From Escherichia phage JulesPiccard, in sequence record MZ501087: a stretch of DNA of 47,731 nt; one strand, given 5' to 3'. The notes under the pieces are model-generated. The model was not told the origin of the DNA. It made no database searches and saw only the letters and a list, made by a program, of their open reading frames with translations. Below are positions 609 through 34,442 of the stretch, piece by piece; the first letter of the stretch is position 1, and the number at the start of each line of letters is the position of its first letter. Made by a program: the position numbers and the translations under genes.

Positions 609-2177
609 ATGGCTAATTTAGTATGGGAAGAAATGACCATTCAGGAAAAGATGGCCGTCAAGGCGATATCAGAACACAGCTTCGAGGGCTTTCTTCGTTG
701 CTGGTTCCAAATCACACAGGGCGAGCGATACATCCCTAACTGGCATCACAAATATCTATGCAGAATCATTGACGAGATTATTGCAGGTGAGCGCAAGGAC
801 ACCATCATCAACATAGCGCCGGGCAGCGGAAAGACAGAAATAGCTTCAATTCACTTTCCTGCCTACTCTATGGTTAAGCTGAAGAAGGTGCGGAACCTTA
901 ATATCTCCTTTGCCGACTCATTGGTTAAGCGTAACTCCAAGCGCGTACGTGACCTTATCAAATCTCAAGAATTTCAATCACTCTGGCCATGCAAGTTTGG
1001 TACGTGCAAAGACGATGAGCTTCAGGTTCTTGACGAGAGTGGCAAGGTTAGATTTGAGTCAATATCAAAGGCGGCTGGAGGTCAGATTACAGGCGCTCGA
1101 GGTGGCTATATAACAGAAACATACAGCGGGGCAGTTCTATTAGATGATTTCGACAAGCCGGCCGACATGCTATCTCAGGTCTACCGAACTAACAATCACG
1201 TAATGCTTAAGAACACGATTCGCTCACGTCGAGCTAGTTCTGTAAAAGGCAAGGCGACACCAATCATTTCGATACAGCAGCGATTGCACGTCAATGACTC
1301 AACCTGGTTCATGATGGAAGGAGGGATGGGTATTGATTTCGATCTGATTAAGATACCAGCATTAGTTACTGAGGATTACATCGATTCACTTCCTGACTGG
1401 ATTAAAGAGCAGTTTGCGGAAGACGTTTTGAGTGGTGAGTACATTGAGCGAGATGGGGTAAAGTACTATAGCTACTTCCCTAAAAAGGAATCCGTGCACG
1501 ACCTAGTTGCGATGTGGGATAGTGACCCGTACACTTTCCTTAGCCAGTATCAACAGGAACCTGTAGCTCTCGGCGGCAATCTGATTAACGTGGATTGGTT
1601 CCAGCGCCTTAGTGACACATTCAGACCTCCAGCTAAGTATGATTATCGATTCATCACGGCTGATACGGCGATGACAACTAAAAGCTATAGTGACTTCTCT
1701 GTGTTGCAACTTTGGGGCTATAAGGATGCCAGGATTTACCTTCTTGACCAACGCAGAGGCAAATGGGAGGCACCAGAGTTACAGGCTGAATTGCTTGAGT
1801 TTGAGAAGTCCGCAAGGGCCACCAGTCAGCAAAATGGAATTCTTCGAAAGATTATCGTCGAGAAGAAAGCATCTGGTATCGGTCTTATTCAATCAGCAAG
1901 TCGAGTTATGCGAACGCCAGTCGAGCCATACGTTCCGGATAACGACAAGCTGACCAGGGTAATGAGTGCGCTACCGCAGATTAAGGCCGGTAACGTCGTT
2001 CTTCCAGGGTCAGCGACATGGCTAAATGGTTTGCTTACGGAGATTGCATCTTTCACAGCAGACGACTCACACAAGCATGACGACCAAATTGACTGCCTAA
2101 CAATGGCAATCAACCTGGTACTTAACATTGCAGATGACCCTAAATCGCGGATGTTACGCCTTGCAGGAATTAAATAG
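609..2177 (+). CDS. terL: terminase large subunit
   Basis: 522 aa; N-terminal P-loop-like APGSGKTE; size and position before portal; C-terminal acidic nuclease-like region. Confidence 0.8.
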   Translation: MANLVWEEMTIQEKMAVKAISEHSFEGFLRCWFQITQGERYIPNWHHKYLCRIIDEIIAGERKDTIINIAPGSGKTEIASIHFPAYSMVKLKKVRNLNISFADSLVKRNSKRVRDLIKSQEFQSLWPCKFGTCKDDELQVLDESGKVRFESISKAAGGQITGARGGYITETYSGAVLLDDFDKPADMLSQVYRTNNHVMLKNTIRSRRASSVKGKATPIISIQQRLHVNDSTWFMMEGGMGIDFDLIKIPALVTEDYIDSLPDWIKEQFAEDVLSGEYIERDGVKYYSYFPKKESVHDLVAMWDSDPYTFLSQYQQEPVALGGNLINVDWFQRLSDTFRPPAKYDYRFITADTAMTTKSYSDFSVLQLWGYKDARIYLLDQRRGKWEAPELQAELLEFEKSARATSQQNGILRKIIVEKKASGIGLIQSASRVMRTPVEPYVPDNDKLTRVMSALPQIKAGNVVLPGSATWLNGLLTEIASFTADDSHKHDDQIDCLTMAINLVLNIADDPKSRMLRLAGIK

Positions 2178-2217
2178 CACGAATTGCCAAACACAAAAGC
2201 CACGGATGGCGTATAGT
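2175..2217 (+). promoter_or_regulatory. conserved promoter/operator element (TAGCA-N5-TGCCA ... TATAGT)
   Basis: family motif; TAG is terL stop. Confidence 0.55.
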
Positions 2218-2247
2218 CACTTCACACAAACGAGAGGAGTTAAACAA

Positions 2248-2625
2248 ATGACAAACACTTCAAAGGCTGTATATATTGGGAACAATGATGACAAGTATTG
2301 TGGATTCACTCCGGGAAATGAATACGACGTTTGCGTTCTTGATGATGGATTTTTGGGGGTTTACGATGATGATGATATTCACCGTTGCATTAAAAACGGA
2401 ACGTTACACGAGTTCAAGCTCGATTGTGAGGATGGTCATTTTGTAACTGAGACTGAGTGCGAAGTCATGCCGCCTATCGACAATAAAAAGCCAGAGCTTA
2501 GATATTACATAAATGGTCATGAGGTTGACATGGTTGAGTTCGGAAATGTGCGCTATACTGTAGAGCAGCTTAATGAGGATGGCGTAAAATGCGACACAAT
2601 CAAGTTCGAAGTAAAATTCGAGTAA
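2248..2625 (+). CDS. hypothetical protein, cargo gene (paralog of 14371..14745)
   Basis: ATG 2248 after RBS GAGAGGAG; preceded by promoter element at 2175 and followed by terminator; C-terminus IKFEVKFE matches IDFEVSFE of 14371..14745. Confidence 0.6.
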   Translation: MTNTSKAVYIGNNDDKYCGFTPGNEYDVCVLDDGFLGVYDDDDIHRCIKNGTLHEFKLDCEDGHFVTETECEVMPPIDNKKPELRYYINGHEVDMVEFGNVRYTVEQLNEDGVKCDTIKFEVKFE

Positions 2626-2646
2626 CCACAAAAGCTGTGATAAACT

Positions 2647-2669
2647 AGCCCCTGTTATGGGGCTTTTTA
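2647..2669 (+). terminator. intrinsic terminator
   Basis: hairpin GCCCC-TGTTAT-GGGGC then TTTTT. Confidence 0.7.
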
Positions 2670-2681
2670 TTGGAGAAAAAC

Positions 2682-3944
2682 ATGGTCAAGACAGACAGCT
2701 ACGCCAATATCTTTCTCGGCGGCAGTGATGGTAGTGAGATTTACGGGAGTTTGCAGAATCAGGCGCCCACAATTCTGGCCTCGCTTTATGCTGACAATGC
2801 TCTGGTGCGTCGAATTATCGACACAATACCGGAGACAGCATTAGCGGCAGGATTCCACATTGATGGTATTGATGATGAATCTGAATTCTGGTCTCACTGG
2901 GACGACCTGGAGCTAACAAAACACATCAATGAAGCCTGGTCATGGGCTAGATTGTTCGGTGGGTCTGCAATTGTTGCTATCGTTAAGGACAATAGGGCGC
3001 TAACAAGTCCGGTCAGAGAAGGTGCCGAGCTTGAAACGGTTCGCGTTTACGACCGCACACAAGTAAAAGTACAAACCCGAGAGGAGAACCCACGCAACTC
3101 GCGCTTTGGTAAGCCGCTAACCTATCGCATCACAACAAACGAAAGCGATATGTTCTATGATGTGCATTACACCCGCATTCACATCATTGACGGAGAGCGA
3201 GTCCCTAACGTAATGCGCCGTCAGAATGATGGATGGGGTAGAAGTGTTCTTTCTAGTGATATTCTTGACTCAATCAAGGATTACACGAACTGTGAACGAC
3301 TTGCCACGCAATTACTGAAGCGTAAGCAGCAGGCGGTCTGGAAGGCGAAAGGGCTTGCTGAGTTGTGTGATGACAGCGAAGGATTTGGCGCGGCTCGATT
3401 ACGACTTGCTCAGGTTGATAACAATAGTGGCGTGGGTCAGGCAATTGGCATTGACGCAGAATCTGAAGAGTACAGTGTTCTAAACTCTGATATCGGCGGG
3501 ATTGATGCGTTTCTGGATAAGAAGTTTGACCGAATCGTTGCTCTGAGCGGCATTCATGAAATCATCCTGAAGAACAAGAACGTTGGCGGTGTATCTTCAA
3601 GCCAGAATACGGCGCTTGAGACATTCCACAAGCTGGTTGACCGCAAGCGTAATGCTGAGCTTCTGCCTATTCTTGAGTTCTTAATCCCGTTCATTGTTAA
3701 TGTAGAAGAATGGTCAGTAGAGTTTAATCCTTTAGCGCAGGAGTCGAGCAAGGATAAAGCAGAGATTCTGGAGAAGAACGTAAACAGCATTGCGGCACTA
3801 ATTGCAGCTGGCGCTATGGATACTAACGAGGCTCGTGATACACTACGAACTATCGCACCAGAGATTAAGATTGGTGATGGAAATATCGAACCTGAAGAAC
3901 CATCTAAGGAAGTAATCGCGACGACAGAGGAATCTAATGAATGA
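2682..3944 (+). CDS. portal protein
   Basis: 420 aa, downstream of terL; ATG 2682 after GGAGAAAAAC; acidic C-terminus; size and position typical. Confidence 0.7.
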   Translation: MVKTDSYANIFLGGSDGSEIYGSLQNQAPTILASLYADNALVRRIIDTIPETALAAGFHIDGIDDESEFWSHWDDLELTKHINEAWSWARLFGGSAIVAIVKDNRALTSPVREGAELETVRVYDRTQVKVQTREENPRNSRFGKPLTYRITTNESDMFYDVHYTRIHIIDGERVPNVMRRQNDGWGRSVLSSDILDSIKDYTNCERLATQLLKRKQQAVWKAKGLAELCDDSEGFGAARLRLAQVDNNSGVGQAIGIDAESEEYSVLNSDIGGIDAFLDKKFDRIVALSGIHEIILKNKNVGGVSSSQNTALETFHKLVDRKRNAELLPILEFLIPFIVNVEEWSVEFNPLAQESSKDKAEILEKNVNSIAALIAAGAMDTNEARDTLRTIAPEIKIGDGNIEPEEPSKEVIATTEESNE

Positions 3945-3977
3945 TGAATTTGATGGATTTTAGTGAGGAGAATTGGG

Positions 3978-5066
3978 ATGTATAAAGTCCGCTATGACAG
4001 CGCAAAGTTTAAGGCAACAATCGACGAGAATGGATTCTTAGTCGATACGCCTGTGGTAGCGCGCCTCGGCGTGCAAGTCTACTACATGGAGGATGGTCGC
4101 ACGGTTCGAGAGTTTCGCCCAGCAGAGGAAGTTTTCAAGGATGAATCCCTCGCAAGCTACCAGGGTAAGCCAATGACCCTGGATCACGTCTTCGTTAACT
4201 CTGAGAACGCTAAAGAGGTGGTAGTAGGTTCAGTTTCTGGCAAAGCTGAACCTCTTGGCAGTTCAGTGGTTGCGCCAATCGTTATTTACGACAACGCAGC
4301 CATTCAGGAAGCTATGGCAGGTAACGCCAAGGAGTTGTCAGTCGGATACTCTGCAATTCTTGACGAAACCCCAGGATGGGGAGACCCTGCTACTGGCGAG
4401 TACATCCTTAAATCTGATGCTGATGAGAAATTCGATGCACCAGAAGGATGGCAGGAGTTCGACGCAATTCAGCGTGACATTAAAGTGAACCATCTCGCAA
4501 TGGTATATCGCGGTCGCGCAGGTATTGCCAAATTGAATATGGACGGTGAGCAGGAAAACCCGTATACTACTGACGTTGATATCAATAAAGAGGATAAACA
4601 GGAAATGATTAAGATTAAACTCGACGGCGCGCAGGAATTTGAGGTCGCACCGGAAGTCGCTTCTCACATCGAAGCGCTGAACGCAAAGGCTGATACCGCA
4701 ATCGCAGAGCGCGACGCACTGAAAGCTAAAGTAGACGCAATGCCTGCCGAAATCGAGGCTGCCGTAGCTAAAGCTAAAGCAGACGCTGAAGCACTAGCTG
4801 CCCTGGTTGCTGTTGCCGCTGAAGCTGGTGTGAAAGCTGACGGTCTGGATGCTAAAGGCATTAAAGTTGCTTACGTTAAAGAAGTCTCCGGCCTTGATGT
4901 TGCTGAGAAATCCGACGCGTACATCGACGCAGCGTTCGACATTGCCAAAGATTCTGATAAAATGGCTGAAGTACGTAAAGCAACTAACGCTTCCAACAAA
5001 TCTGACAGCGCCGATGAGCCTAAGAAATTAGACCCGCGTGCTCGTTTAGCTAAAATTAAGAAATAA
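3978..5066 (+). CDS. putative prohead protease / scaffolding protein
   Basis: RBS GAGGAG 7 nt before ATG 3978; C-terminal Ala/Glu/Lys-rich predicted coiled coil typical of scaffolds; between portal and capsid. Confidence 0.55.
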   Translation: MYKVRYDSAKFKATIDENGFLVDTPVVARLGVQVYYMEDGRTVREFRPAEEVFKDESLASYQGKPMTLDHVFVNSENAKEVVVGSVSGKAEPLGSSVVAPIVIYDNAAIQEAMAGNAKELSVGYSAILDETPGWGDPATGEYILKSDADEKFDAPEGWQEFDAIQRDIKVNHLAMVYRGRAGIAKLNMDGEQENPYTTDVDINKEDKQEMIKIKLDGAQEFEVAPEVASHIEALNAKADTAIAERDALKAKVDAMPAEIEAAVAKAKADAEALAALVAVAAEAGVKADGLDAKGIKVAYVKEVSGLDVAEKSDAYIDAAFDIAKDSDKMAEVRKATNASNKSDSADEPKKLDPRARLAKIKK

Positions 5067-5078
5067 GGAGTTATAAAC

Positions 5079-5600
5079 ATGGCAATTCGTTCCGTAGCAC
5101 TGGCTGGTATGGTTTCTGATACCTCTCTGTATAACATCGACGGCGCTTGCGTAGTTGGTGGTAGTGATGCAATTCCGGTTGGTACTGTTGTTGGAGTTAC
5201 ATCCGCTCAGCCTGTGGATGGTCACAAGGTTGTTGGCCTCCCTGCTGTGACTGGCACACCAGTTAAACCTTATGGTGTTGTTGTTAAATCTCATTACGAG
5301 ACACCGGATGGCACCGCTCGCGTAAATGAAGCAGTTAACGTAATGACTCATGGTCGAATCTGGGTTCGAACCACTTTAGAAGCTGCGCCAGATTTTGGTA
5401 GTAAGGTTTTCGTAAACGCAAGTGGCGTTGTTGCTACCGAAGCAGCAGGCACTACTTGGGAGACTGGCTTTACATTTGCTGGCGGTTATGTGTCTGCCTA
5501 TGCTGGCGGCGCCAACCCAATTCAGCAAGGAGAAAGCGTTGATGGTGCACTAGTTGAGGTTCAGCTTATTCAATCCGCAGACTCAACTGTTGCAGCTTAA
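5079..5600 (+). CDS. putative head decoration/structural protein
   Basis: RBS TAAGGAG; Gly/Val/Thr-rich 173 aa in head module; followed by intrinsic terminator. Confidence 0.4.
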   Translation: MAIRSVALAGMVSDTSLYNIDGACVVGGSDAIPVGTVVGVTSAQPVDGHKVVGLPAVTGTPVKPYGVVVKSHYETPDGTARVNEAVNVMTHGRIWVRTTLEAAPDFGSKVFVNASGVVATEAAGTTWETGFTFAGGYVSAYAGGANPIQQGESVDGALVEVQLIQSADSTVAA

Positions 5601-5606
5601 TTAGAT

Positions 5607-5626
5607 GGCCCTTCGGGGCCTTTTTT
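5607..5626 (+). terminator. intrinsic terminator
   Basis: GGCCC-TTCG-GGGCC then TTTTTT. Confidence 0.75.
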
Positions 5627-5642
5627 ACTATATGGGGATTTT

Positions 5643-5867
5643 ATGATAAAAATATTTTCTGGTGACTTCGAGTTCGCACATGAGGCTGATGCATTCCTTA
5701 ATGATGCAATTTCCTCAGGATTCAAATATCTAGTCAGGTCGCTGAGCAAATCACCAATGATTCAGGCCTATAGTCGCAGCGATACAACTCCAGGAAAAGG
5801 GGTTATAAGAAAGGATGGAGTGAGAGTTTTGGGAGTGGCCCTATCTGACGACCCTAGATGTGGATAA
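5643..5867 (+). CDS. hypothetical protein
   Basis: 74-aa ORF between terminators in head module. Confidence 0.35.
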   Translation: MIKIFSGDFEFAHEADAFLNDAISSGFKYLVRSLSKSPMIQAYSRSDTTPGKGVIRKDGVRVLGVALSDDPRCG

Positions 5868-5963
5868 CTGGTTGATGAATTTTCTGTTTTTAAGTCAGCG
5901 GAGTATGAGGAGTATACTCATGAGATTGATGGTGTATGGGTTAACTATATCCACAATGACTTC

Positions 5964-6185
5964 GTGAGTAAATTAAATGATGGTTGGAGAACGGTTACAG
6001 ACAGCGCATCCCCGCTAACCCACCACCCTCAGGTGTTGACGTGGTCATGGGAGTACAACTACTATTACACAAGATCATCATCAACTTATGGTATTTGCTT
6101 TTTAGCTAGGTTTGCAAATCATGATTCAACTAAAAAATCTGGCTGGGCCTTAGTTAAGTACGAAGAGGTAGAAGCGCCACAGTAA
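5964..6185 (+). CDS. hypothetical protein
   Basis: 73-aa ORF followed by terminator hairpin at 6190. Confidence 0.35.
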   Translation: MSKLNDGWRTVTDSASPLTHHPQVLTWSWEYNYYYTRSSSTYGICFLARFANHDSTKKSGWALVKYEEVEAPQ

Positions 6186-6189
6186 ATAA

Positions 6190-6209
6190 AGCCTCCTTCG
6201 GGAGGTTTT
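6190..6209 (+). terminator. intrinsic terminator
   Basis: CCTCC-TTCG-GGAGG then TTTT. Confidence 0.65.
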
Positions 6210-6285
6210 ACCGCCACCATTGCGTGGGCTAAAAACTCGTGTATAATGAACCCGTAGACACCTAACTGAAAAGGAACAATAAAGA

Positions 6286-7230
6286 ATGGCCATTAAATTT
6301 GATGCAGAACAAGCAAAAATCACCGCCCACCTCGAGCAAATGGGCGTAGATAAAGCAGATGCCGCTGGTATCTGGACCGTTAATCAGCTTACCGCTGCAC
6401 TGAATCGTGCTTACGAGAAAGAGTATGCAGAGAACTCTGTCGTTAATATCTTCCCTGTAACAAATGAAATCCCTGGTCACGCGAAGTATTTCGAATATCC
6501 AGAATTCGACGGTGTTGGTATCGCTCAGATTATCGCTGATTACTCTGACGACCTGCCTCTGGTTGACGCTTTCATGACTGAGAAGCAAGGTAAAGTATTC
6601 CGTTTCGGTAACGCATTCCTGATTTCTACTGATGAAATTAAAGCTGGCGCTGCAACTGGTCAGTCTCTGTCAACTCGCAAACAAGCGCTGGCATTCGAAG
6701 CGCACGACAACCTGTTGGACAAACTGGTTTGGTCTGGTTCCGCTCCGCACGGTATCGTAAGCGTATTCGATCAGCCGAACATCAACAACGTTGTTGCAAC
6801 TCCAAACTGGAGCGTCCCGCAGAACGCAATTGATGACGTAACCGCGATGATTGATGCAGTTGAATCTTCAACTCAGGGCTTACATCATGTGACTGACATT
6901 CTGCTTCCAGCCTCTGCTCGCCGAGTAATGCAGCAACTGGTTCCGCAGACAAACCTGAGTTACGGCGAATTGTTCACTCGTAACAACTCGGGCCTGACTA
7001 TTCGCTTCTTGCAGTTCCTGGATAACTACGATGGAGCGGGTGGTAAAGCTGCTCTGGCGTTTGAAAAGAGTCCACTCAATATGTCTATCGAGATTCCAGA
7101 AGCTACTAACGTTCTTCCTGGTCAACCGAAAGATTTGCACTTTAAGTACCCTGTAACATCTAAAGCGACAGGTTTGATTGTTTATCGCCCTCTGACGATG
7201 GCAGTAATCAAAGGCATTACCTTCGCGTAA
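6286..7230 (+). CDS. major capsid protein
   Basis: 314 aa, RBS AAAGGAAC, flanked by strong terminators (high-expression unit), position in head module. Confidence 0.65.
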   Translation: MAIKFDAEQAKITAHLEQMGVDKADAAGIWTVNQLTAALNRAYEKEYAENSVVNIFPVTNEIPGHAKYFEYPEFDGVGIAQIIADYSDDLPLVDAFMTEKQGKVFRFGNAFLISTDEIKAGAATGQSLSTRKQALAFEAHDNLLDKLVWSGSAPHGIVSVFDQPNINNVVATPNWSVPQNAIDDVTAMIDAVESSTQGLHHVTDILLPASARRVMQQLVPQTNLSYGELFTRNNSGLTIRFLQFLDNYDGAGGKAALAFEKSPLNMSIEIPEATNVLPGQPKDLHFKYPVTSKATGLIVYRPLTMAVIKGITFA

Positions 7231-7236
7231 TAAATC

Positions 7237-7258
7237 GCCCTCTTCGGAGGGCTTTTTT
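7237..7258 (+). terminator. intrinsic terminator after capsid gene
   Basis: GCCCTC-TTCG-GAGGGC then TTTTTT. Confidence 0.75.
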
Positions 7259-7323
7259 ACGTCTGTACCAAATGGAATTGTTGGGTTATAATCACTCAAT
7301 CAGATAAACAAAGGAGAAAAAAA

Positions 7324-7569
7324 ATGATTCGCTTAGAACACACTGGCGCTTGCCTTATCGTCTACAAGGGTGAGAAATATTTGCCTGGTGATACTTTCGA
7401 GGTTGATGCAATTTGCGACGGACTCAAGCGCCTAATCGCAGAGGGTAAGCTCACCATTGAGGGTGACGCTAAGGCAACCAAGCAGATCGCGCAGGAAATT
7501 GTTAGCAAGAAGAAGCGCAAAGAACCGAAAACCATCTCCGAAGCTGAGACTGGTAACGAGTACAAATAA
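7324..7569 (+). CDS. hypothetical protein (Lys-rich C-terminus)
   Basis: RBS AAAGGAGAAAAAAA before ATG; own terminator. Confidence 0.45.
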   Translation: MIRLEHTGACLIVYKGEKYLPGDTFEVDAICDGLKRLIAEGKLTIEGDAKATKQIAQEIVSKKKRKEPKTISEAETGNEYK

Positions 7570-7574
7570 CAAAA

Positions 7575-7596
7575 GGGCGCTTCGGCGTCCTTTATT
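7575..7596 (+). terminator. intrinsic terminator
   Basis: GGGCGC-TTCG-GCGTCC then TTTATT. Confidence 0.6.
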
Positions 7597-7609
7597 GTAT
7601 GGAGCTAAT

Positions 7610-8011
7610 ATGAATGATGCAATTTTGGCGTTTATGCGATCGCTTGTTCCTGCGCTTAAAGCGGTGGATGACGAATCAATTAATGTATGGATCGATTTGG
7701 CACGTCTCTACGTATGTGAGAGCAAGTTTGGCAATGATGCTGATCGCGCTGTGGGCCTTTATGCCTTGCACCTGATGCTTTCTGATGGCGCATTTAAGGG
7801 TGAGAATGAAGGCTTGGAAACATACAGTCGTAGAATGGCAAGTTATGCACTGAGCGGTGAGTTCTCTATCACTTATGATAATCAATCAGCAATCCAGGGT
7901 GACTTATCATCTTCCTCATGGGGTCGTATGTACAAGGCACTTCTCCGCAAGAAAGGTGGTGGCTTTGGTTTGATTACTTCCGCTCGTAGCGGTGGGTGCG
8001 GTTGCCGATGA
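7610..8011 (+). CDS. putative head-tail connector protein
   Basis: ATG 7610 after GGAG; position between capsid and tail genes. Confidence 0.45.
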   Translation: MNDAILAFMRSLVPALKAVDDESINVWIDLARLYVCESKFGNDADRAVGLYALHLMLSDGAFKGENEGLETYSRRMASYALSGEFSITYDNQSAIQGDLSSSSWGRMYKALLRKKGGGFGLITSARSGGCGCR

Positions 8012-8379
8012 ACTACAACGAAATAGAATCAATCACTCGTGCTGGCATTAACTTCTTTAGTGATGCCAGCGGCGTTTATGAAATGAGTACGGGAGCTGGA
8101 TATGTTGAAATCGTTAACGGCGTTGAGGTTGAGGTTCCTTCGCAAACATTTCAGCTAAAGGGCTTGGTGCGAGAAATCAAGACGCGAGATATCGATGGCG
8201 AGTTTATCCAGTTTGGCGATAAGCGCGGAATCTTCACGGCCCAGGTGGAAATCAAGCAGGGTTATCAGATTAAGGTTGATGGTGAGACTTTTGTTGTTGT
8301 TGACCCGCGCCCTGTTAAACCAACTGGCACGGTTGTTGGCTACCGTCCAATTCTTCGTAGGGTGGCTACTTATGGCTAG
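8008..8379 (+). CDS. putative head-tail joining protein
   Basis: ATGA overlap with upstream gene (translational coupling). Confidence 0.45.
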   Translation: MNYNEIESITRAGINFFSDASGVYEMSTGAGYVEIVNGVEVEVPSQTFQLKGLVREIKTRDIDGEFIQFGDKRGIFTAQVEIKQGYQIKVDGETFVVVDPRPVKPTGTVVGYRPILRRVATYG

Positions 8380-8809
8380 GAATATTGGAAGCGTGGTTAC
8401 GTTTGAAAAATCTATTGCTGACTGGATTGACAGAGCGGAGGATGGTTTTGGGATTGTGGTAGCCAATACGGTTATCAAGACAGCCAGCGCAATTGTTGAC
8501 CTTTCTCCTGTCGACACTGGTAGGTTTAAGGCTAACTGGCAAATCACCGCAAACTCGCCAGCCCAGCAGTCACTAAACGAGTACGACCAGACTGGCGGTC
8601 AGACAAAAACATACCTCGCCAGACAGGCGAGAGCGGTTGCCAACTCAAAAGCTACAAGTGTTATTTATATTACCAACCGACTTGACTACGCGGCTGATCT
8701 TGAGTACGGCGCATCAAACCAGGCTCCATCCGGTGTTTTAGGTGTGGTGCAAGCAAGGTTGGGTAGGTATTTTCAAGAGGCAGTGGAGGAGGCGCGTCGT
8801 GCAATATGA
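8372..8809 (+). CDS. putative neck/tail completion protein
   Basis: 145 aa, overlaps upstream stop; position in connector module. Confidence 0.45.
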   Translation: MARNIGSVVTFEKSIADWIDRAEDGFGIVVANTVIKTASAIVDLSPVDTGRFKANWQITANSPAQQSLNEYDQTGGQTKTYLARQARAVANSKATSVIYITNRLDYAADLEYGASNQAPSGVLGVVQARLGRYFQEAVEEARRAI

Positions 8810-9200
8810 ATTATCATTAGCAGCAAGGAAGTTCGTCAACGATTTGCTGGTAAGTGAATTTCCAGTCAGGTATCCAGTTGCTTGGGAGAATGCTGCATTT
8901 ACCCCTCCTGCAGACGGATCAATCTGGCTTAAGTACGACTACACAGAGGCAGACACCGTAACCTATGGGCTTAGCCGAAAGTGCAAATACTACGTAGGCA
9001 TGGTGCAGATTTCTGTTTTCTTCAGTCCTGGCACTGGAATTGATAAGCCGAGACAAATCGCTAATCAATTGGCAGAATCTATCGTTGATGGTACAATACT
9101 TGACAGCGGGACCATTTATGAGTCTGGAGTTGTTAACCCGGTTATCAAATCCAAGTCTGGGTGGTTTATCCCGGTTCGTTTTTATGTTCGTCTAGACTAA
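8799..9200 (+). CDS. putative tail terminator/minor tail protein (GTG start uncertain)
   Basis: RBS AGGAGG 6 nt before GTG 8799; alternative ATG 8742 lies inside upstream gene. Confidence 0.4.
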   Translation: MQYELSLAARKFVNDLLVSEFPVRYPVAWENAAFTPPADGSIWLKYDYTEADTVTYGLSRKCKYYVGMVQISVFFSPGTGIDKPRQIANQLAESIVDGTILDSGTIYESGVVNPVIKSKSGWFIPVRFYVRLD

Positions 9201-9214
9201 CAAAAGGAAAATAC

Positions 9215-9871
9215 ATGGCCCATTTATCAAACGGCACCCAAGTCTTCGTAGAAGGCTCTCGTGGTGATGCTATTTCTGTCACTGCAATCTCTAACGCCTC
9301 CAGACCAGTTCTAACCGTTGACGATGCTTCTGGCGTTGTTGTTGGTGATTACCTGTTGTTTACAGCATCTGCTTCTACACTACTTGCTGATAAGCAAGTT
9401 CGAGTTACCGCTGTAACTGGTAACTCAATCACTGTTGAAGGTATCGATACCTCTAACACCACAAAATTCCCAACTGGCTTAACTGGTGAGGTAGTTAAGA
9501 TTCTTTCCTGGTTCGAAGTTCCGTGTGTTCAGGACGTATCCACTGACGGTGGAGAGCAGCAGTTTGTTAACTTCCAGTGCCTTTCTGATGATCGTGAACA
9601 GCAGATTCCGACCTATAAATCTGCCGTAACAAACACCTTTACCTTCGCTCATGAGTACACTAACCCGGTTTATCCGGTTCTGCGTGAATATGATGAGTCT
9701 GGTCAGGTTGTCGCGATTCGACTGTATGTTCCACGCGCCCAGGAAATGCGCTTGCAGTCCGGCACTATCGCTTTCAACGACACCCCCACCATTGGTGTTA
9801 ACGAAATCGAAACGGTATCCATCGCAGTATCCATTCGTGGTCGCTTGTCCTCTGTGGCAGCTGAAGTTTAA
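9215..9871 (+). CDS. major tail protein
   Basis: 218 aa, RBS AAGGA, directly upstream of G/GT chaperones and tape measure, followed by strong terminator. Confidence 0.6.
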   Translation: MAHLSNGTQVFVEGSRGDAISVTAISNASRPVLTVDDASGVVVGDYLLFTASASTLLADKQVRVTAVTGNSITVEGIDTSNTTKFPTGLTGEVVKILSWFEVPCVQDVSTDGGEQQFVNFQCLSDDREQQIPTYKSAVTNTFTFAHEYTNPVYPVLREYDESGQVVAIRLYVPRAQEMRLQSGTIAFNDTPTIGVNEIETVSIAVSIRGRLSSVAAEV

Positions 9872-9878
9872 AACACAA

Positions 9879-9900
9879 ACCCTCTTCGGAGGGTTTTTTA
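9879..9900 (+). terminator. intrinsic terminator after major tail gene
   Basis: ACCCTC-TTCG-GAGGGT then TTTTTT. Confidence 0.75.
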
Positions 9901-9905
9901 TTGCA

Positions 9906-9948
9906 TAGCATTTTTTGATAAAGCATTAATTTAATCTTCCTGTATAGT
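9906..9948 (+). promoter_or_regulatory. conserved promoter/operator element
   Basis: TAGCATTTTTTGATAAA ... TATAGT ... CATCGAAACGAAATGAG leader. Confidence 0.55.
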
Positions 9949-9981
9949 TACCTCATCGAAACGAAATGAGAGATTAAAGAA

Positions 9982-10230
9982 ATGAATAACGTTAAAAACA
10001 TCATCAAGCTCGCTGCGGTTCTGGTTGCTTTTTATGCAGTGATTCAGATTGTTAATCCAACCGGCGAGGCTGATGCAAATAGCAAGGCAAACAAATATGC
10101 CGTTGAATTTGCTAAAGCTGAGCGAGCATGTCAGTCGCTTGTAGGTGGTAAAGTTGACCAAATCATGAAATATGGCAAAGAGGTTTGCAAGGACTCAGCC
10201 GCTAAGATTGCAAAAGAAAACACTAAGTAA
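9982..10230 (+). CDS. small membrane protein
   Basis: hydrophobic N-terminal segment LAAVLVAFYAVIQIV; own promoter element at 9906. Confidence 0.45.
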   Translation: MNNVKNIIKLAAVLVAFYAVIQIVNPTGEADANSKANKYAVEFAKAERACQSLVGGKVDQIMKYGKEVCKDSAAKIAKENTK

Positions 10231-10269
10231 TAGAATACATACTCACAAACAATAAGAGGATTAACTAAG

Positions 10270-10584
10270 ATGGCAAAGTTCAAACTTTCACTGGCGGCAC
10301 TTCCTGACTTTAAGCTGCCTGTAAAATTCAAGCTAGCTAACGACCAGGATGTAGAGGTTATTTTTACAGTCAAGCACAAGAAGACATCGGAACTTCAGGA
10401 GTTGCTACAGAAAGAAGACTTGAGTACCAAAGAATTGATTATGGCAATCGCCTCTGATTGGGATCTGGAAGAAGAATTTAATGAAGAAAACGTCATCGAG
10501 TTTGCTGATTTATTCCCATCCTCCACAGTTGCGCTTACTACCGCTTATATGCAAGCGCTCGCTGGTCAACGAGTAAAAAACTAA
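10270..10584 (+). CDS. tail assembly chaperone (gpG-like)
   Basis: ~100-aa acidic protein just upstream of tape measure; slippery heptamer at its 3' end. Confidence 0.65.
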   Translation: MAKFKLSLAALPDFKLPVKFKLANDQDVEVIFTVKHKKTSELQELLQKEDLSTKELIMAIASDWDLEEEFNEENVIEFADLFPSSTVALTTAYMQALAGQRVKN

Positions 10585-10904
10585 AACGAGCGGTGTATCT
10601 CCAGTACCAGTCAGACCCAACCGATGCCGAGCTGGAAGCTATTGGGATGCGCCGCTCTGATTATGAAGATGAAGAGCCTGAGGTTTTACACTTCGACGAC
10701 AACATGATGAAGGCGTGGGACATTTACTGTTCAATGGCCACGCAATGGAGGGTTGGAGCTAACGGAGCTACAGGGCTAGATTACAACGTGCTAAACTTCC
10801 TCTTTAGAGTGTATAATGTCTCAGAAGAAGAATTGGTGCTCAGCGATTTACGCATCCTTGAAGCTAAGGCTCTTGAGATGATGGATAACCTGAGAAAAAA
10901 ATAA
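10270..10904 (+). CDS. tail assembly chaperone fusion (gpGT-like) via programmed -1 frameshift
   Basis: heptamer A_AAA_AAC at 10575..10581 immediately before G stop; -1 frame stays open to 10904. Confidence 0.55.
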
Positions 10905-10925
10905 CCCGCTTCGGCGGGTTTTCTA
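10904..10925 (+). terminator. terminator/attenuator between GT chaperone and tape measure
   Basis: ACCCGC-TTCG-GCGGGT then TTTCT. Confidence 0.55.
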
Positions 10926-10939
10926 TTATGGAGGCTTAG

Positions 10940-13915
10940 ATGGCAACAAATGAATTAGCCGGAATCACACTAGCCGTAGATGTCTCGCAAGTGGACAGGG
11001 GCACTCAATCCCTGCAAAAGTTCAGACAGGCTAACCAACAAGCGGCCTCTGGGATTAGTGAGTTCGTTGATGCCGAGAAGGTTGCAAGAATCCAGGCGAG
11101 AGACACCGCTAGATCGCTAGCGGAACAGCAAGCGTCACTAGCTAAGTTGCAAACAGCGATTGATCCAACAGCTGCAAAGTTCCGAAAACTTCAGGAAGCT
11201 GCCGCCGCTTTGGACAAGGCTTTCGCCGCTGGAGTGGTTCCTGATGAGGAGTTTTTCCGCTTAGGCGAGGCACTTGAAACGCAGAATGCAAAGCTCGCTC
11301 GCTCTCGCGCAGCTCTCACTGAAGAGGGTAGGGCAGCGGCTCAAGCAGCAAAGGAGAAAGCGAAAGCACAGGCGGCGGCGGATAGATTTATTGCATCACT
11401 TGAACGCCAGGCTCAGGCTGCAACATTGACGCGCGAGGAGTATTTAAAGTTACAGGCAGCACAGCTTGGCGTTAGTTCTCAGGCCGCGCCTATTATTGAC
11501 AGAATCGCCGAAGCTTCAGAGAGGGCTAATGTTCAATTAGCGAACCAAAGCAAGGCCTTTCAGAAGTCAGGGCTAAGCGCCGGTCAATACAAGAATGCCA
11601 TTAGCCAGTTGCCAGCACAGATTACAGATATTGGAACATCACTTGCTGGCGGCATTCCGATTTGGCTTATTGCAATTCAACAGGGTGGGCAGATCAAGGA
11701 TGCATTTGGCGGTATTGGTAACACCTTTAGGTTTGCCCTTGCTGCGCTAAATCCTTTTAATGTTGCCGTTGGTGTTCTTGGTGGTGCCCTTGTAGCTCTC
11801 GGTGTTGGTGCGGCTCAGGCTGAAAGTGAATTTAGAGCATTAAACTCTGCGATTGCATTCTCAAACAACTCGACAATTACGTCAATCTCGCAAGTTAGGC
11901 AGTTAGTTAGCTCTGTTTCTGATGCCACTGGCGCCACCAGGGGCCTTGTGACTAGCATCGCAACAAGCCTTATTGAGCAAGGAAACCTTACGCTAACGCA
12001 GATTGATAAGATTACTAAATCAACCGCGAGATGGGCGCAGTTGACAGGTAGGGATGCGAAGGAGATTGCTGGTTACTATAACCAGATTGCAAGCGACCCA
12101 ATCCAGGGTTTAGTTGATTTGGATAAGCGATTTAACTTCCTCACGCAGGGGCAGTTGACGACAATCGAGAACCTGAGAAAGACAAGGGGAGAAGTTGAGG
12201 CTGTTACCGCTGCTATTGATATTTTCAGTAAGTCGCAGGAAGCCAACCTTAACGACATTGCAGCACAGTTAACTCCGCTTGAGTTAGCCTGGAATGATTT
12301 CAAAAAGTACATCTCTGATATCTGGGATGCAATTAGCCGTAGAACGGTTGGGGCGCTAAACCTGTTTGTTGACGTAATAGCTGGAACCATTGAGCAAATT
12401 AGGGTCTTCATTAACCAGGGCGATGTGCTGATTGGTGAATTCGTAATTAGTGCAACGCAGGCATTGCAGAACATTCCTGGTCTTGATGGTGTTGGTGATG
12501 ATGTTATCAAGAGTCAGCAGAAGATTATCGATGCCGCTAAGAAGCAAAACCTTGAGCTAGAAAAGTCTATCAGGGAGCGAGATGCCAGAATAAGAGAAGG
12601 GGAGCTTGGTTACGTTACTCGCAGAGAAAATCAGAACACCAATGAGCAATCAGGTACTGATGAGGAATTTGCAAAAAGGAAGAAGGCACTTCAGGATGAG
12701 CTTGACGCGATCAAGAAAAACAGGAAAGAAGAAAATGGTAGGGTTAAAGAGCAAAGAGACCTAACAATAGGTTATGAATCTGGCGTTCTGGCGCTTCAGG
12801 CTCAGCTAAAAGTTCTTCAGGAAAACAGGGATATCGGCGCAGTAATAAGTAACGAGCGCAAGCAGTACCTTCAGGAAGAGGCTAAATTCAGGATTCTTGA
12901 GCAGAGACAACTTGATGGCTCAATAACCAAAGAGCAGGCAAGGCTTCTCATTGAAAAGGATAAGGTTCTTGAATTGGCAAGGCAGAAGGCTGAGCTAGGT
13001 GATCAGATTGTTTTGCAGGAGCGAGCCAATAAGTTAGCTGAAGATAACAGGAAGAAGATTCTTCAGATTAACAATGAAGCAAACAACATTGATTTAGGCG
13101 CTGCATTGTCATCTCGCGAGCAGCAAAGACTTAAAGAGATTCAGGCTCTTGAGTCCAATCAGGTTAACGCTGGTGGTTCTCTTGAAGACGTAGATTTTCA
13201 GCAACTCCTCGAAGCAAGACGTAATTTTTATGCTCAGGAAGATGCGCTACGTGAAAACTGGCTTGCTGGCGTGAATCAATCCTTTGCTGACTGGGCTGAG
13301 AGCGCTACAGATGCCTTCTCAATTGCTGGAAGTTTAACCACCACCGTATTTGAGGGTATTACCGACCAGATTACCAACCTGGTAACAACTGGTGAGACTA
13401 ACTTCAGGGAATTTACCGTTAGCATTCTTAAGCAGATTGCTAAGATTGCAACCCAGCTTCTTATTGTCAAGGCTATTGAGTCCAGCTTAAGTAGCTTCGG
13501 TGGTACTGGTGGCGCTATTGGTTCAATTGCTTCTGGTTTAGGGTTCGCTAGCGGCGGCTACACTGGAGATGGTGGAAAATATCAGCCAGCAGGCACGGTT
13601 CATCGTGGAGAGTTTGTATTCACAAAAGAAGCGACAAGCCGAATTGGTGTTAAGAACCTTTATGCATTAATGAAAGGTTACGCAAACGGTGGTATTGTTG
13701 GTGGTACTTCTGGTTATGCTGGTGGCGGATTGGTTTCTGGTGGCCCTAATGTTGATGTTAGCGGTATAACTGTTAACGTGAACTCGGGGGTAGGTAGCGA
13801 CCCAGAGCAAGCTAAGGCATTGCAAAGTGGCGTCAAGGCAATCGTAGCGGAAGAGATTGCTCAGTCCTTCCAGCAGGGTGGGCGAGCTTATCAGTACCTT
13901 CGTGGATTCAACTAA
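10940..13915 (+). CDS. tail tape measure protein
   Basis: 991 aa, Ala/Gln-rich coiled coils, hydrophobic segments, Gly-rich C-terminus; RBS GGAGG. Confidence 0.85.
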   Translation: MATNELAGITLAVDVSQVDRGTQSLQKFRQANQQAASGISEFVDAEKVARIQARDTARSLAEQQASLAKLQTAIDPTAAKFRKLQEAAAALDKAFAAGVVPDEEFFRLGEALETQNAKLARSRAALTEEGRAAAQAAKEKAKAQAAADRFIASLERQAQAATLTREEYLKLQAAQLGVSSQAAPIIDRIAEASERANVQLANQSKAFQKSGLSAGQYKNAISQLPAQITDIGTSLAGGIPIWLIAIQQGGQIKDAFGGIGNTFRFALAALNPFNVAVGVLGGALVALGVGAAQAESEFRALNSAIAFSNNSTITSISQVRQLVSSVSDATGATRGLVTSIATSLIEQGNLTLTQIDKITKSTARWAQLTGRDAKEIAGYYNQIASDPIQGLVDLDKRFNFLTQGQLTTIENLRKTRGEVEAVTAAIDIFSKSQEANLNDIAAQLTPLELAWNDFKKYISDIWDAISRRTVGALNLFVDVIAGTIEQIRVFINQGDVLIGEFVISATQALQNIPGLDGVGDDVIKSQQKIIDAAKKQNLELEKSIRERDARIREGELGYVTRRENQNTNEQSGTDEEFAKRKKALQDELDAIKKNRKEENGRVKEQRDLTIGYESGVLALQAQLKVLQENRDIGAVISNERKQYLQEEAKFRILEQRQLDGSITKEQARLLIEKDKVLELARQKAELGDQIVLQERANKLAEDNRKKILQINNEANNIDLGAALSSREQQRLKEIQALESNQVNAGGSLEDVDFQQLLEARRNFYAQEDALRENWLAGVNQSFADWAESATDAFSIAGSLTTTVFEGITDQITNLVTTGETNFREFTVSILKQIAKIATQLLIVKAIESSLSSFGGTGGAIGSIASGLGFASGGYTGDGGKYQPAGTVHRGEFVFTKEATSRIGVKNLYALMKGYANGGIVGGTSGYAGGGLVSGGPNVDVSGITVNVNSGVGSDPEQAKALQSGVKAIVAEEIAQSFQQGGRAYQYLRGFN

Positions 13916-13920
13916 TTAAT

Positions 13921-13945
13921 GGGGCTTCGGCCCCTAAGGATTTTT
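13921..13945 (+). terminator. hairpin (possible attenuator) after tape measure
   Basis: GGGGC-TTCG-GCCCC followed by TAAGGATTTTT. Confidence 0.4.
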
Positions 13946-14296
13946 ATGGCAATTGATACATTTACCTGGTGTACTCAGATTCAAGGTGGCTCAGCCTCCT
14001 TTAGTAACACGAATAACGTTCGCATAGTTAGCTTTGGCAATGGTTATGAACAGCGTGGGACTGGCGGCTACCGAAGCAACAAGCGAAGTTACCAGATGAC
14101 CTACACTAACAAGGACTGGCGTAATGTGATGGATTTCTGTTTCAACCACATCATCACTCCATTCTTCTGGACTACGCCGCAAGGTGATACGTCAATGTTT
14201 GTGATCCAGCAGGATAGCATTAGCGTTACACCACTCAGTAATGAAGTTCAGACTGTAAGCATGCAATTCGTGGAAGTCTTTAGCTCAATGCGTTAA
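13946..14296 (+). CDS. minor tail protein (lambda gpM-like)
   Basis: 116 aa immediately after tape measure; conserved lambda-like order H-M-L-K-I-J. Confidence 0.6.
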   Translation: MAIDTFTWCTQIQGGSASFSNTNNVRIVSFGNGYEQRGTGGYRSNKRSYQMTYTNKDWRNVMDFCFNHIITPFFWTTPQGDTSMFVIQQDSISVTPLSNEVQTVSMQFVEVFSSMR

Positions 14297-14297
14297 A

Positions 14298-14340
14298 TAG
14301 CACTTTTTGCTAAACAGTATTGACATGGATGTCGTATATT
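14298..14340 (+). promoter_or_regulatory. conserved promoter/operator element
   Basis: TAGCACTTTTTGCTAAA, 22 bp, TATATT; leader ACAAAACGAGAGGAGG. Confidence 0.55.
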
Positions 14341-14370
14341 TAATTCAACAAAACGAGAGGAGGATATGAT

Positions 14371-14745
14371 ATGAAGGCTATTTTTAAAGGATCTGCTGGT
14401 AGTGAATTCCTGGTTAAGCGCAACTTTACAGTTGGCAAGGAGTATGATCTGGAAGATGCCAAATTCGGTTTTTACATAACTCAGGATAATCAAGGCAAAA
14501 GCTTGATTTTTCAGAATGGAGTTGATTACACATTTGATTTAGTTGTTGCTGATAGCTTTATCAAGAGCACTGTATGCGAAGATTCAGGCAATGAGGTGGT
14601 AAAGCGCAATGAGAACAAGATGGTCTACCGAATGAATGGTGTAGATGTGACTTGTGACTACTTTAGCGAAAAGCTGTTAGAGGTTGAGTTACTTAAAGCT
14701 AAAGGCGTTTCGGTATTTATCGACTTCGAAGTTAGTTTTGAATAG
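14371..14745 (+). CDS. hypothetical protein, cargo gene (paralog of 2248..2625)
   Basis: RBS GAGAGGAGG; own promoter element at 14298 and terminator at 14765; C-terminal IDFEVSFE. Confidence 0.6.
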   Translation: MKAIFKGSAGSEFLVKRNFTVGKEYDLEDAKFGFYITQDNQGKSLIFQNGVDYTFDLVVADSFIKSTVCEDSGNEVVKRNENKMVYRMNGVDVTCDYFSEKLLEVELLKAKGVSVFIDFEVSFE

Positions 14746-14763
14746 TTAAGGATGATGTTAAAC

Positions 14764-14793
14764 TAGGTCAATCGAGAGATTGGCCTTTTTTTA
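14764..14793 (+). terminator. intrinsic terminator after cargo gene
   Basis: imperfect hairpin plus TTTTTTT. Confidence 0.5.
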
Positions 14794-14805
14794 TTGGAGA
14801 AAATC

Positions 14806-15561
14806 ATGTTAAGTCCAAAGTTTGAAAATCAGTTGCAAAGCCTTTTCCCTGGCGAGATTGTAACTCTAATCCAGGTTGACGGCACGTCCTTCGGAAGTCT
14901 CGTTTACAATTTCCACAATGAGAACATTTCATACACACCTGAAGAAATCATGCTAGCCCAAATGAATGGTGAGCCACTACCAGAGAAAACCATCACCTTT
15001 CGTGGTGAAGAGTACGGCCCAAGACCTTTTGGAATCTCGGGCATAAATATGACCTCTGACGGCAAGGCAAACAAGGTTACGCTAACAGTATCAAACGTAG
15101 ACCAGCGCATTAGCGCATTGATTCGCACATACAACGGACTTGTTAAAGCTAAGGTTACCATCTGGATTACTACGCGAGATAACATCAATGAAGACGGAAG
15201 CATTGCTGATGGGGATTATCGCAGATTCGTTTACTTCATTGAGCGACCAAAGCAGGTTGACTACAAGACGGCATCATTTGAGCTAAGCAGCCCGATGGAT
15301 ATGGATGGTATTTACATTCCTGCTCGACTTGTTCAGTCTGTTTGCTATTTCGCCTCTAGGGGTTGGTATCGTAGCGGTAATGGTTGCGCTTATGCTGGAA
15401 ACAGATACTTCAACAAGGATGACGAGCCAGTATCAGACCCTTCATTAGACTTCTGCGCAGGAACTGTTAACAGTTGCAAGCTTAGATTTGGTGAGAATAA
15501 TCAGTTAGATTTCGGCGGTTGCGCTGCAGCAAGCCTTCAGGCTAAAGCTAATCAATCATAG
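14806..15561 (+). CDS. minor tail protein (lambda gpL-like)
   Basis: 251 aa with C-terminal Cys cluster (CYFA..CAYAG..CAG..C..CAAA) as in Fe-S binding gpL; position. Confidence 0.7.
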   Translation: MLSPKFENQLQSLFPGEIVTLIQVDGTSFGSLVYNFHNENISYTPEEIMLAQMNGEPLPEKTITFRGEEYGPRPFGISGINMTSDGKANKVTLTVSNVDQRISALIRTYNGLVKAKVTIWITTRDNINEDGSIADGDYRRFVYFIERPKQVDYKTASFELSSPMDMDGIYIPARLVQSVCYFASRGWYRSGNGCAYAGNRYFNKDDEPVSDPSLDFCAGTVNSCKLRFGENNQLDFGGCAAASLQAKANQS

Positions 15562-15606
15562 CACTTTTTGTTAAGAGGATGGTCCAGACTTGGGCTATCC
15601 TATAAT
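15559..15606 (+). promoter_or_regulatory. conserved promoter/operator element (upstream of HNH gene)
   Basis: TAGCACTTTTTGTTAAG ... TATAAT. Confidence 0.5.
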
Positions 15607-15628
15607 CTCTTATATTGGTGGTTAAAAT

Positions 15629-28366: not shown

Positions 28367-28555
28367 TTAAATTACAAAGTGATGAGTCATTCTTAGAGAC
28401 AAAAAAGACTCAAGATACCCCTCAATTACTTCCTTTTTACCAGTTTTTTTGTTGTAGGCGTATGGAATTCCTCTGCTGTTATCAACTTTACCAACAAATT
28501 TGTCGCCATCAACGTTAAAGATTGCTACGAATTTACATTTAGGGAATTTGTTCAT
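28367..28555 (-). CDS. hypothetical protein
   Basis: 62-aa ORF between HTH gene and primase. Confidence 0.35.
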   Translation of the reverse strand: MNKFPKCKFVAIFNVDGDKFVGKVDNSRGIPYAYNKKTGKKEVIEGYLESFLSLRMTHHFVI

Positions 28556-34357: not shown

Positions 34358-34358
34358 G

Positions 34359-34401: not shown

Positions 34402-34442
34402 CACCAAATCGAAACGAGATGAACTAAACCAGGAAACACAAA

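Follow-up and report, generated by a model that had tools for sequence, protein, structure and literature searches.

Escherichia phage JulesPiccard, which is Bas03 of the BASEL collection, is an Rtp-like siphovirus of the Drexlerviridae, and its closest relatives in GenBank are ~87% identical to it across the structural half of the genome. The window analyzed here is the whole stretch of 47,731 bp. Its structural half harbors two small genes that are the subject of this analysis: gene A, flanked by the genes for the large terminase TerL (609-2177) and the portal (2682-3944), and gene B, flanked by tail genes resembling M (13919-14296) and L (14806-15561) of phage lambda. Each gene is preceded by a promoter-like and leader module and followed by a terminator-like module that runs into the next gene.

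2174 to 2247, plus strand: promoter-like/leader module of gene A, with box ATAGCACGAATTGCCAAA at 2174-2191, -10-like hexamer TATAGT at 2212-2217, leader CACACAAACGAGAGGAG and ribosome-binding site (RBS) GAGGAG at 2234-2239.
2248 to 2625, plus strand: gene A, product bas03_0004, 125 residues, isoelectric point (pI) 4.4.
2641 to 2684, plus strand: 3' module at TerL/portal, with TAAACTAG, hairpin AGCCCCTGTTATGGGGCT at 2647-2664, T-tract, ATT, portal RBS GGAGA and portal ATG at 2682.
14297 to 14370, plus strand: promoter-like/leader module of gene B, with box ATAGCACTTTTTGCTAAA at 14297-14314, -10-like hexamer TATATT at 14335-14340, leader AAACGAGAGGAG and RBS.
14371 to 14745, plus strand: gene B, product bas03_0023 (identical protein match), 124 residues, pI 4.7, G+C content 38.4%.
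14759 to 14808, plus strand: 3' module of gene B, with TAAACTAG, hairpin GGTCAATCGAGAGATTGGCC, T-tract, ATT, L RBS GGAGA and L ATG at 14806.

An earlier note on this DNA had proposed that A and B are paralogous, and this holds: compared with each other by BLASTP, the two proteins are 31% identical from end to end (E 8e-9), so that their similarity extends over the full length and well beyond the C-terminal octapeptide (IKFEVKFE in A, IDFEVSFE in B). Both match phrog_14592 over their full length, A with an E-value of 1.2e-34 (residues 4-125 on profile positions 1-116) and B with 1e-23. AlphaFold predicts the same fold for both, in which a disordered linker joins a five-stranded barrel to a beta-beta-alpha-beta unit, with predicted local distance difference test (pLDDT) scores of 73.8 for A and 77.9 for B. 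The family is small: 5.8 billion proteins yielded ~70 clusters (90% identity), and 1.84 billion representatives yielded 47 matches, of which ~35 are small proteins with the architecture of A and B and a few long ones look like low-complexity noise; a scan of IMG/VR returned five loci only. All matches whose source is named come from Rtp-like coliphages or E. coli, and gene order is Rtp-like at every locus inspected, the family thus appearing narrow and confined to Rtp-like coliphages.

The regions upstream of A and B align over ~74 nt and belong to a family of ~19 phased copies genome-wide, whose consensus is ATAGCAC-N3-TTGCTAAA, a 20-bp spacer and TATAGT. The box ATAGCAC-N3-TTGCTAAA matches the window 20 times against two expected, and of 18 genuine copies, 14 have the -10-like TATAGT hexamer at a distance of exactly 38 nt from the beginning of the box (examples of box sites are 2174+, 9905+, 14297+, 22321-, 23948+, 31604+, 37916-, 42374+ and 45510+). 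From the box to the first ATG the distance is 68-89 nt, most commonly 74 nt, and the leader following the -10 in this family is TACCCCATCGAAACGA; within the window, the exact leader AAACGAGAGGAG is found at A and B only. The stop codon of the preceding gene often lies just 5' of the box or inside it: the TerL stop codon TAG (2175-2177) falls within the box of gene A, and the box of gene B begins directly after the stop codon of M. Since genes located 3' of boxes include those for an Erf-like annealing protein, two helicases and a polynucleotide kinase, as well as many small open reading frames (ORFs), the description of the promoter as private to each of the two genes had to be abandoned. The structural half holds only four boxes, which precede gene A, an 82-residue ORF at 9982-10230, gene B and an HNH endonuclease gene. 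The promoter and leader of gene B are nearly identical, at the same site, in the metagenomic contigs L005 and L006.

The box contains an inverted repeat, TAGCA-N5-TGCTA, which given the fixed spacing is centered near -41.5, a position that would suit a class II activator site. Because of this palindrome and its position, control of the box family by a dimeric, possibly phage-encoded regulator is suggested, rather than a plain sigma-70 promoter. A simple scan for canonical sigma-70 promoters gave weak matches of the TAAACA-18-TATATT type only, and its overall count of promoter-like sequences was not above that of shuffled sequence. A TTGACA within the spacer of gene B was rejected as a -35 element, being at the wrong distance from any -10. 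Likeness to the MotA box of T4, based on the TGCT motif, was also rejected: in T4 middle promoters the MotA box lies 11-13 bp from the -10, compared with 20 bp here. At 47318-47380, a strong terminator is succeeded by a canonical TTGACA-17-TAGTAT, shortly ahead of the last small ORF and the gene for the small terminase; this TTGACA-17-TAGTAT element is of another type than the box family and may be the promoter of the packaging/structural operon. In the searchable literature we found no description of the strictly phased box family, only one passing mention of 'phage-specific promoters' (PMC6301781).

On the 3' side, a terminator-like hairpin follows each gene, as had been claimed: 2647-2664 after A (-15.3 kcal/mol, z -3.3) and 14765-14786 after B (-12.7 kcal/mol, z -2.7), both folding more stably than shuffled controls. 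The module TAAACTAG-hairpin-TTTTTATT occurs in the window at these two places only, and the two hairpins differ in sequence. The junction TTTTTATTGGAGAAAANCATG is exact at both loci and is confined in the window to 2664-2684 and 14788-14808, even when three mismatches are allowed (0.01 expected by chance). The identical downstream junction of the earlier note is therefore genuine. It is the T-tract of the terminator plus ATT followed by the GGAGA RBS of the next gene, and its being part of one inserted cassette is not supported, since relatives devoid of the gene at TerL/portal and at M/L keep both terminator and junction.

Comparison of filled and empty sites delimits what was inserted. The pairs of genes flanking A and B are directly adjacent in most relatives, in agreement with an insertion between structural genes. 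The empty TerL/portal site of vB_EcoS-12210I reads ...ATTAAATAAGCGTGATAAACTAGCCCCGTGTATGGGGCTTTTTTATTGGAGAAAAACATG, where the terminator and junction are in place and the box and gene A are gone; the insertion at this site would accordingly consist of promoter, leader and ORF only. The M/L site is empty in vB_Ec-G8 (G8), AugustePiccard, SU57, L014, Rtp, BEK2 and TR2, where it reads GCGTTAAACTAAGCCCC...GGGGCTTTTTTATTGGAGAAATATATG or a near variant, and in T1 a terminator of unrelated sequence is present there; no insert at M/L was found in 85 matched GenBank relatives. At the empty TerL/portal and M/L sites alike, the box module disappears with the gene.

Family members are found at a third intergenic site, L/K, besides TerL/portal and M/L. 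L/K is truly empty in BEK2 and in L006, which read GAGTTAAGGAGAAATAAATG and have no terminator, and the L and K genes of T1 overlap. In G8, AugustePiccard, SU57 and L014 a family member occupies the site, which there holds a box, the ORF, GTTAAACTAG, the hairpin GGTCAATCGAnAGnTTGGCC and T6ATT, inserted precisely between the stop codon and the GGAGA RBS. Here the terminator is gained and lost together with the cassette, and the boundaries of indels and replacements are clean at the start of the box and after the T-tract. One shell carries varied cargo at L/K: a full-length family member, a 69-residue ORF weakly matching the N-terminal domain (N-domain) only (TR2, L018 1729-1938), or an HNH gene. 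The last of these is the case in JulesPiccard, Rtp and L005, whose HNH endonuclease unit starts with a copy of the box.

15558 to 16111, plus strand: HNH homing endonuclease unit at L/K, with box ATAGCACTTTTTGTTAAG at 15558 and ORF 15629-16111, 160 residues (phrog_99, E 2e-60).

This box includes the stop codon of L, and the end of the HNH ORF overlaps the start of K at 16105. Gene B is the usual L/K cassette, found at M/L in JulesPiccard. Its hairpin is that of the L/K cassettes of G8, AugustePiccard, SU57, TR2 and L014, not the AGCCCC..GGGGCT of empty M/L sites; the hairpin GGTCAATCGAnAGnTTGGCC is located at L/K in relatives and at M/L in JulesPiccard and L005-L008. The nearest relatives of gene B, 90% and 83% identical, come from metagenomic contigs with the gene order M/B/L/HNH/K or M/B/L/K, and more distant ones (37-54%) include the L/K copies of AugustePiccard, SU57, G8, phiEB49, ACG-M12 and L014.

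The presence of HNH genes at the very same sites raises the possibility that the cassettes are mainly passengers of HNH homing endonucleases, which on invading these sites would cut endonuclease-free genomes and let repair co-convert the neighboring cassette, and that the regulatory repeats are incidental. HNH genes lie at L/K in JulesPiccard, Rtp, L005 and DTL, and are annotated under or beside the TerL/portal match in RobRod40 and AugustePiccard; JulesPiccard and L005 both combine gene B at M/L with an HNH gene at L/K; and the G+C content of the HNH gene (39.8%) is as low as that of the cassettes. Moreover, the 3' end of L reads AAT CAA TCA TAG with the HNH gene (JulesPiccard, Rtp, L005) and AAT CAG AGT TAA without it. 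The two endings encode the same amino acids but draw their serine codon from different families, as would be expected of co-converted or target-immunizing flanks; co-conversion, or immunity of the target site, may have left this trace. Nevertheless, L006-L008 have gene B at M/L and no HNH gene nearby, the L/K cassettes of G8, SU57 and L014 have none in the stretch examined, and the indel ends match the box and terminator modules rather than the HNH gene. For another variable gene of the Drexlerviridae, a recent survey found HNH genes to be associated only sporadically (PMC13164509). We consider it quite improbable that the cassettes are essentially HNH passengers.

In many Rtp-like phages one or both genes are lacking, and a frameshift divides the TerL/portal copy of phiEB49 (L013 3471-3826) into two ORFs, one for the N-domain and one for the C-terminal domain (C-domain). 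To judge from this distribution and from the frameshifted copy, both genes are dispensable. The split could mean that the copy is a pseudogene, that its sequence contains an error or that a programmed shift takes place; in BFVD, a 68-residue Gp57 of phiEB49 is listed as a separate protein. Family members are 30-66% identical at loci whose flanking genes encode portal, L and K proteins of 91-98% identity, and the G+C content is 40.5% for gene A, compared with 44.7-47.3% for the flanks. At the gene A locus, conservation among relatives is about as high in the promoter (84-88%) and in the terminator with junction (82-86%) as in the flanking genes, and the protein varies by part, with 38-64% identity in the N-domain, 25-43% in the linker and 59-90% in the C-domain. 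Gene B evolves under purifying selection relative to its closest relatives, with a ratio of nonsynonymous to synonymous substitutions (dN/dS) of 0.14-0.44, apart from one N-domain comparison of 1.35 that involves few changes. Among JulesPiccard, L005 and L006, dS is 0.21-0.41 for gene B, compared with 0.94-1.68 for M and 0.55-0.94 for L, and since the value of gene B lies below those of M and L its cassette seems younger than its surroundings, as after horizontal exchange, a contrast that is indicative only, given the shortness of the gene (124 codons) and the three genomes compared. The notion of an accessory cassette is thus retained for a dispensable promoter-leader-ORF unit of low G+C content, and is not supported as first worded for the terminator and junction, which also stand at the empty TerL/portal and M/L sites.

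These comparisons also bear on the possibility that the JulesPiccard genome recently gained a second copy of one of its own cassettes, the one cassette inserted twice of the earlier note. The two loci do align overall, and within the window the leader AAACGAGAGGAG and the junction are shared by these two genes only. Their proteins are just 31% identical, however, their hairpins differ, each C-domain type is widespread, and each gene has much closer relatives elsewhere: up to 66% identical at TerL/portal in other phages for A, and 90% and 83% at M/L, with remoter ones at L/K, for B. Recent copying is therefore extremely unlikely. Given this low identity, the differing hairpins and the closer relatives elsewhere, A and B instead appear to be two old subtypes of a small family.

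The proteins themselves are modular. In gene A, residues ~4-59 form an N-domain resembling SH3 and DUF7244 domains and residues 62-79 an acidic, disordered linker, after which comes a type I C-domain with the beta-beta-alpha-beta arrangement. In an alignment of 53 members, the N-domain and linker are variable and the C-domain is conserved in two types, type I ending in ...GVKCDTIKFEVKFE as in gene A, and type II ending in ...GVSVFIDFEVSFE as in gene B; both are widespread in the phrog_14592 family alignment. In P0049 a B-like N-domain is joined to a C-domain of type I and in P0058 an A-like N-domain to one of type II, the metagenomic P0103 (216 residues) carries two tandem N-domains before one C-domain, and P0107 (62 residues) is a C-domain alone. 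N- and C-domains thus appear to behave as independent modules shuffled among family members.

With five strands superposable on SH3 domains, the N-domain has the characters of an SH3-like small beta-barrel, and its fold matches in BFVD are small stand-alone phage proteins and DUF7244 proteins. A hidden Markov model (HMM) of the family N-domain, searched against all ORFs of the window, recovered ORF 34443-34619 (25.6 bits, E 6e-7), a bona fide DUF7244 protein and the nearest relative of the N-domain of A and B in the genome.

34358 to 34619, plus strand: stand-alone DUF7244 gene, with box at 34358 and ORF 34443-34619, 58 residues counting the start Met (PF23896, E 5e-29).

The Pfam model of DUF7244 (PF23896) itself scores the N-domain of gene B at 14.6 bits (E 0.036), below its threshold of 27 bits, and does not match gene A; kinship is suggested by the family HMM and the BFVD fold matches only. 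For A and B as a whole, no significant family was found in Pfam or NCBIfam and no match in PADLOC, and a profile search of PDB sequences gave chance matches only. The structural comparison that had been proposed yielded a shared two-domain fold, and Foldseek found nothing in the PDB below E 0.2; no known fold could be assigned to the C-domain. Neither a nuclease motif nor an enzymatic signature emerged from the Pfam, NCBIfam, PDB profile and Foldseek searches.

Several other box-associated features were observed in the window. The spacer of the DUF7244 gene box (34358) forms a perfect hairpin, ATGCCGTA-GAAA-TACGGCAT, that overlaps the -10, and the boxes at 37916-, 38696- and 43744+ also have spacer hairpins or terminator-like stems. 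Three small box-preceded ORFs of 62-70 residues, 28367-28555 (-), 31684-31878 (+) and 44436-44648 (+), have patterns that recall small beta-barrels, such as GFRVGDIVEV...YDDGD at 44436, without a Pfam match; these may be further distant relatives of the N-domain. The 82-residue ORF (9905-10230 with its own box, phrog_22925), located 3' of a terminator at 9877-9896 and flanked by the major tail gene and those for the tail chaperones, has an N-terminal hydrophobic segment; it looks like a moron-like unit and possibly encodes a membrane or exclusion protein.

The C-domain type follows the site. Type I is found at all six head-side loci and type II at 10 of 11 tail-side loci, or at 7 of 8 when the near-identical contigs L006-L008 are counted once, which makes 13 of 14 loci overall instead of 16 of 17. 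The exception, L016, has a type I C-domain at a tail site on a short metagenomic contig that could be chimeric, and as the sole exception it weakens the idea that the site dictates the type.

This association is what one would expect if the A and B proteins were minor virion-associated components serving in decoration, assembly or as adaptors, with the C-domain docking on the neighboring gene product (type I on the portal or connector, type II on the tail tip) and the N-domain displayed. The location of the genes inside the head and tail modules, the label 'virion structural protein' in PHROG and RefSeq, the annotation of the SU57 protein as 'putative tail fiber protein' and an amphipathic C-terminal strand fit for beta-augmentation speak in the same sense. 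The label nevertheless seems generic, because the JK06 portal and a portal fragment family bear it too, and we found no proteomic paper detecting these proteins in the searchable literature. Furthermore, many close relatives whose portal, L and K proteins are nearly the same lack the genes, a frameshift interrupts the phiEB49 copy, a tail site harbors one C-domain of type I, a small stand-alone gene of the replication half encodes a homolog of the N-domain, and the promoter module is that of replication genes, not that of the packaging operon. A virion role is on this evidence unlikely, although it is the main rival explanation.

The explanation that we favor is that A and B are old paralogs carried in moron-like cassettes made of the phage's own control parts, and on balance we believe it to be correct as a whole. 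Each gene resides in a moron-like expression cassette assembled from standard components: a 5' part of ~74 bp, with box, 20-bp spacer, -10, conserved leader and RBS, present in ~19 copies in the genome, and a 3' part in which a TAAACTAG-hairpin-T6-ATT terminator adjoins the GGAGA RBS of the next gene. As these modules recur at several intergenic sites, they could act as portable homology arms; cargo would be inserted, deleted, replaced and moved among TerL/portal, M/L and L/K through recombination at these arms, which would also shuffle N- and C-domains between copies. The cassette promoters would fire independently of the structural operon. The encoded proteins are acidic and would be cytoplasmic, with a fast-evolving N-terminal barrel, a disordered linker and a better-conserved C-domain. 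Gain and loss at the modules, changes of site and cargo, and domain shuffling are well supported by the comparisons; recombination at the repeats as the mechanism, and independent firing of the promoters, are what we infer. The cassette and its evolution are the part of this explanation that we hold with considerable confidence. The function of the proteins is its weakest step: dispensability, hypervariability, kinship with a small gene of the replication half and a shared promoter class lead us to favor a non-structural accessory factor, and we propose, quite tentatively, that its variable N-domain binds a variable host or defense target.

Several observations weigh against this explanation. 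The gap between TTGCTA and the -10 is 22 bp, too long for a standard sigma-70 -35 element, and promoter activity is putative. The terminator is found without the gene at TerL/portal and M/L, and since empty sites keep it, the 'own terminator' of gene A is not demonstrably in the mobile unit. The 3' module has only two copies in the genome, and three sites across relatives, far fewer than the box. RefSeq and PHROGs label the family 'virion structural protein', and the association of C-domain type with site would also suit docking on neighboring gene products. Finally, the searchable literature contains no transcription, proteomic or phenotype data on A and B, and the dS contrast carries the limits mentioned above.

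A bolder version, which is possible and which we regard as doubtful, is that Rtp-like siphoviruses maintain mobile cassettes in their late operon that resemble the promoter-early stem-loop (PeSL) cassettes of T4-type phages, with two portable arms, the 74-bp promoter module, its palindromic box controlled by a regulator of the phage, and the conserved terminator module. These arms would move hypervariable two-domain effector genes from site to site and from phage to phage, the proteins being adaptors for counter-defense or host takeover. The fast-evolving SH3-like N-domain would then track variable host targets, and the conserved C-domain would be a common effector or anchor.

JulesPiccard, as a member of the BASEL collection, is widely used against anti-phage defense systems, and bas03_0004 and bas03_0023 are unannotated there. 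Since they belong to a dispensable, hypervariable and mobile family, putatively with its own promoters, that shares a domain with small early proteins, they are concrete candidates for trigger or inhibitor screens, and the database label 'virion structural protein' calls for caution. More generally, these genes offer a compact and tractable example of how virulent siphoviruses may gain, lose and relocate accessory genes via their own repeated control sequences. Public databases already contain the phage and its ORFs, the family exists as a PHROG, and morons and PeSL shuffling are well-known concepts; novelty may lie in the cassette system of Rtp-like phages, its behavior at three sites and the strictly phased promoter family.

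Among the closest known systems are the morons of lambdoid and other siphophages (Juhala, Hendrix et al.), genes with their own promoter and terminator between genes that are adjacent in related phages. Like them, A and B lie between genes adjacent in relatives (TerL/portal in vB_EcoS-12210I, M/L in seven phages), are dispensable, and have a G+C content of 38-40% compared with 44-47% in the flanks. Their candidate promoter is a conserved phased module with a good -10 and non-standard sigma-70 spacing, and their candidate terminator a hairpin that comes and goes with the cassette at L/K but also stands at the empty TerL/portal site. In contrast to morons, prophage expression and lysogenic conversion do not apply, as JulesPiccard is virulent; the promoter is not foreign, being the phage's own repeated module; and two of the three sites have the terminator even without the gene.

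The PeSL cassettes of T4-type phages provide the second comparison: recombination at repeated motifs inserts, deletes and replaces small non-essential ORFs there (Arbiol et al., 2010, PMC2839356; PMC4122927). In both systems promoter and terminator motifs lie around small non-essential ORFs, the promoter box of JulesPiccard being repeated ~19 times and its terminator module only twice, and in both the indels or replacements between close relatives end at the motifs, the same shell receiving different cargo. However, JulesPiccard is a 48-kb siphovirus whose cassettes lie in the late structural operon, whereas PeSLs populate hyperplastic early regions; the promoter and terminator of A and B are separate modules at the ORF ends rather than a single composite motif; and the promoter has the 22-bp gap already mentioned.

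At the level of the proteins, Gp54 of phage Bas11 is the trigger of CapRel(SJ46) (PDB 9AXB; PMC11578894). Like the small phage proteins of DUF7244, it shares with A and B a small SH3-like beta-barrel and an origin in coliphage siphoviruses, and is non-essential and fast-evolving. A and B differ from DUF7244 proteins by falling below the Pfam threshold and by their additional linker and C-domain, and Gp54, with its six-stranded barrel, resembles them at the level of the fold alone; it was rejected as a homolog, the DUF7244 protein of the window having no sequence relation to it.

Finally, the free-standing HNH endonucleases of T1-like phages occupy the very same intergenic sites, with the same presence/absence polymorphism and low G+C content. 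The HNH unit at L/K even begins with the same box as A and B, which differ from it in having no nuclease motif. Overall, the anatomy of A and B fits that of moron-like accessory cassettes, and their repeated control modules also fit cassettes of the PeSL type.

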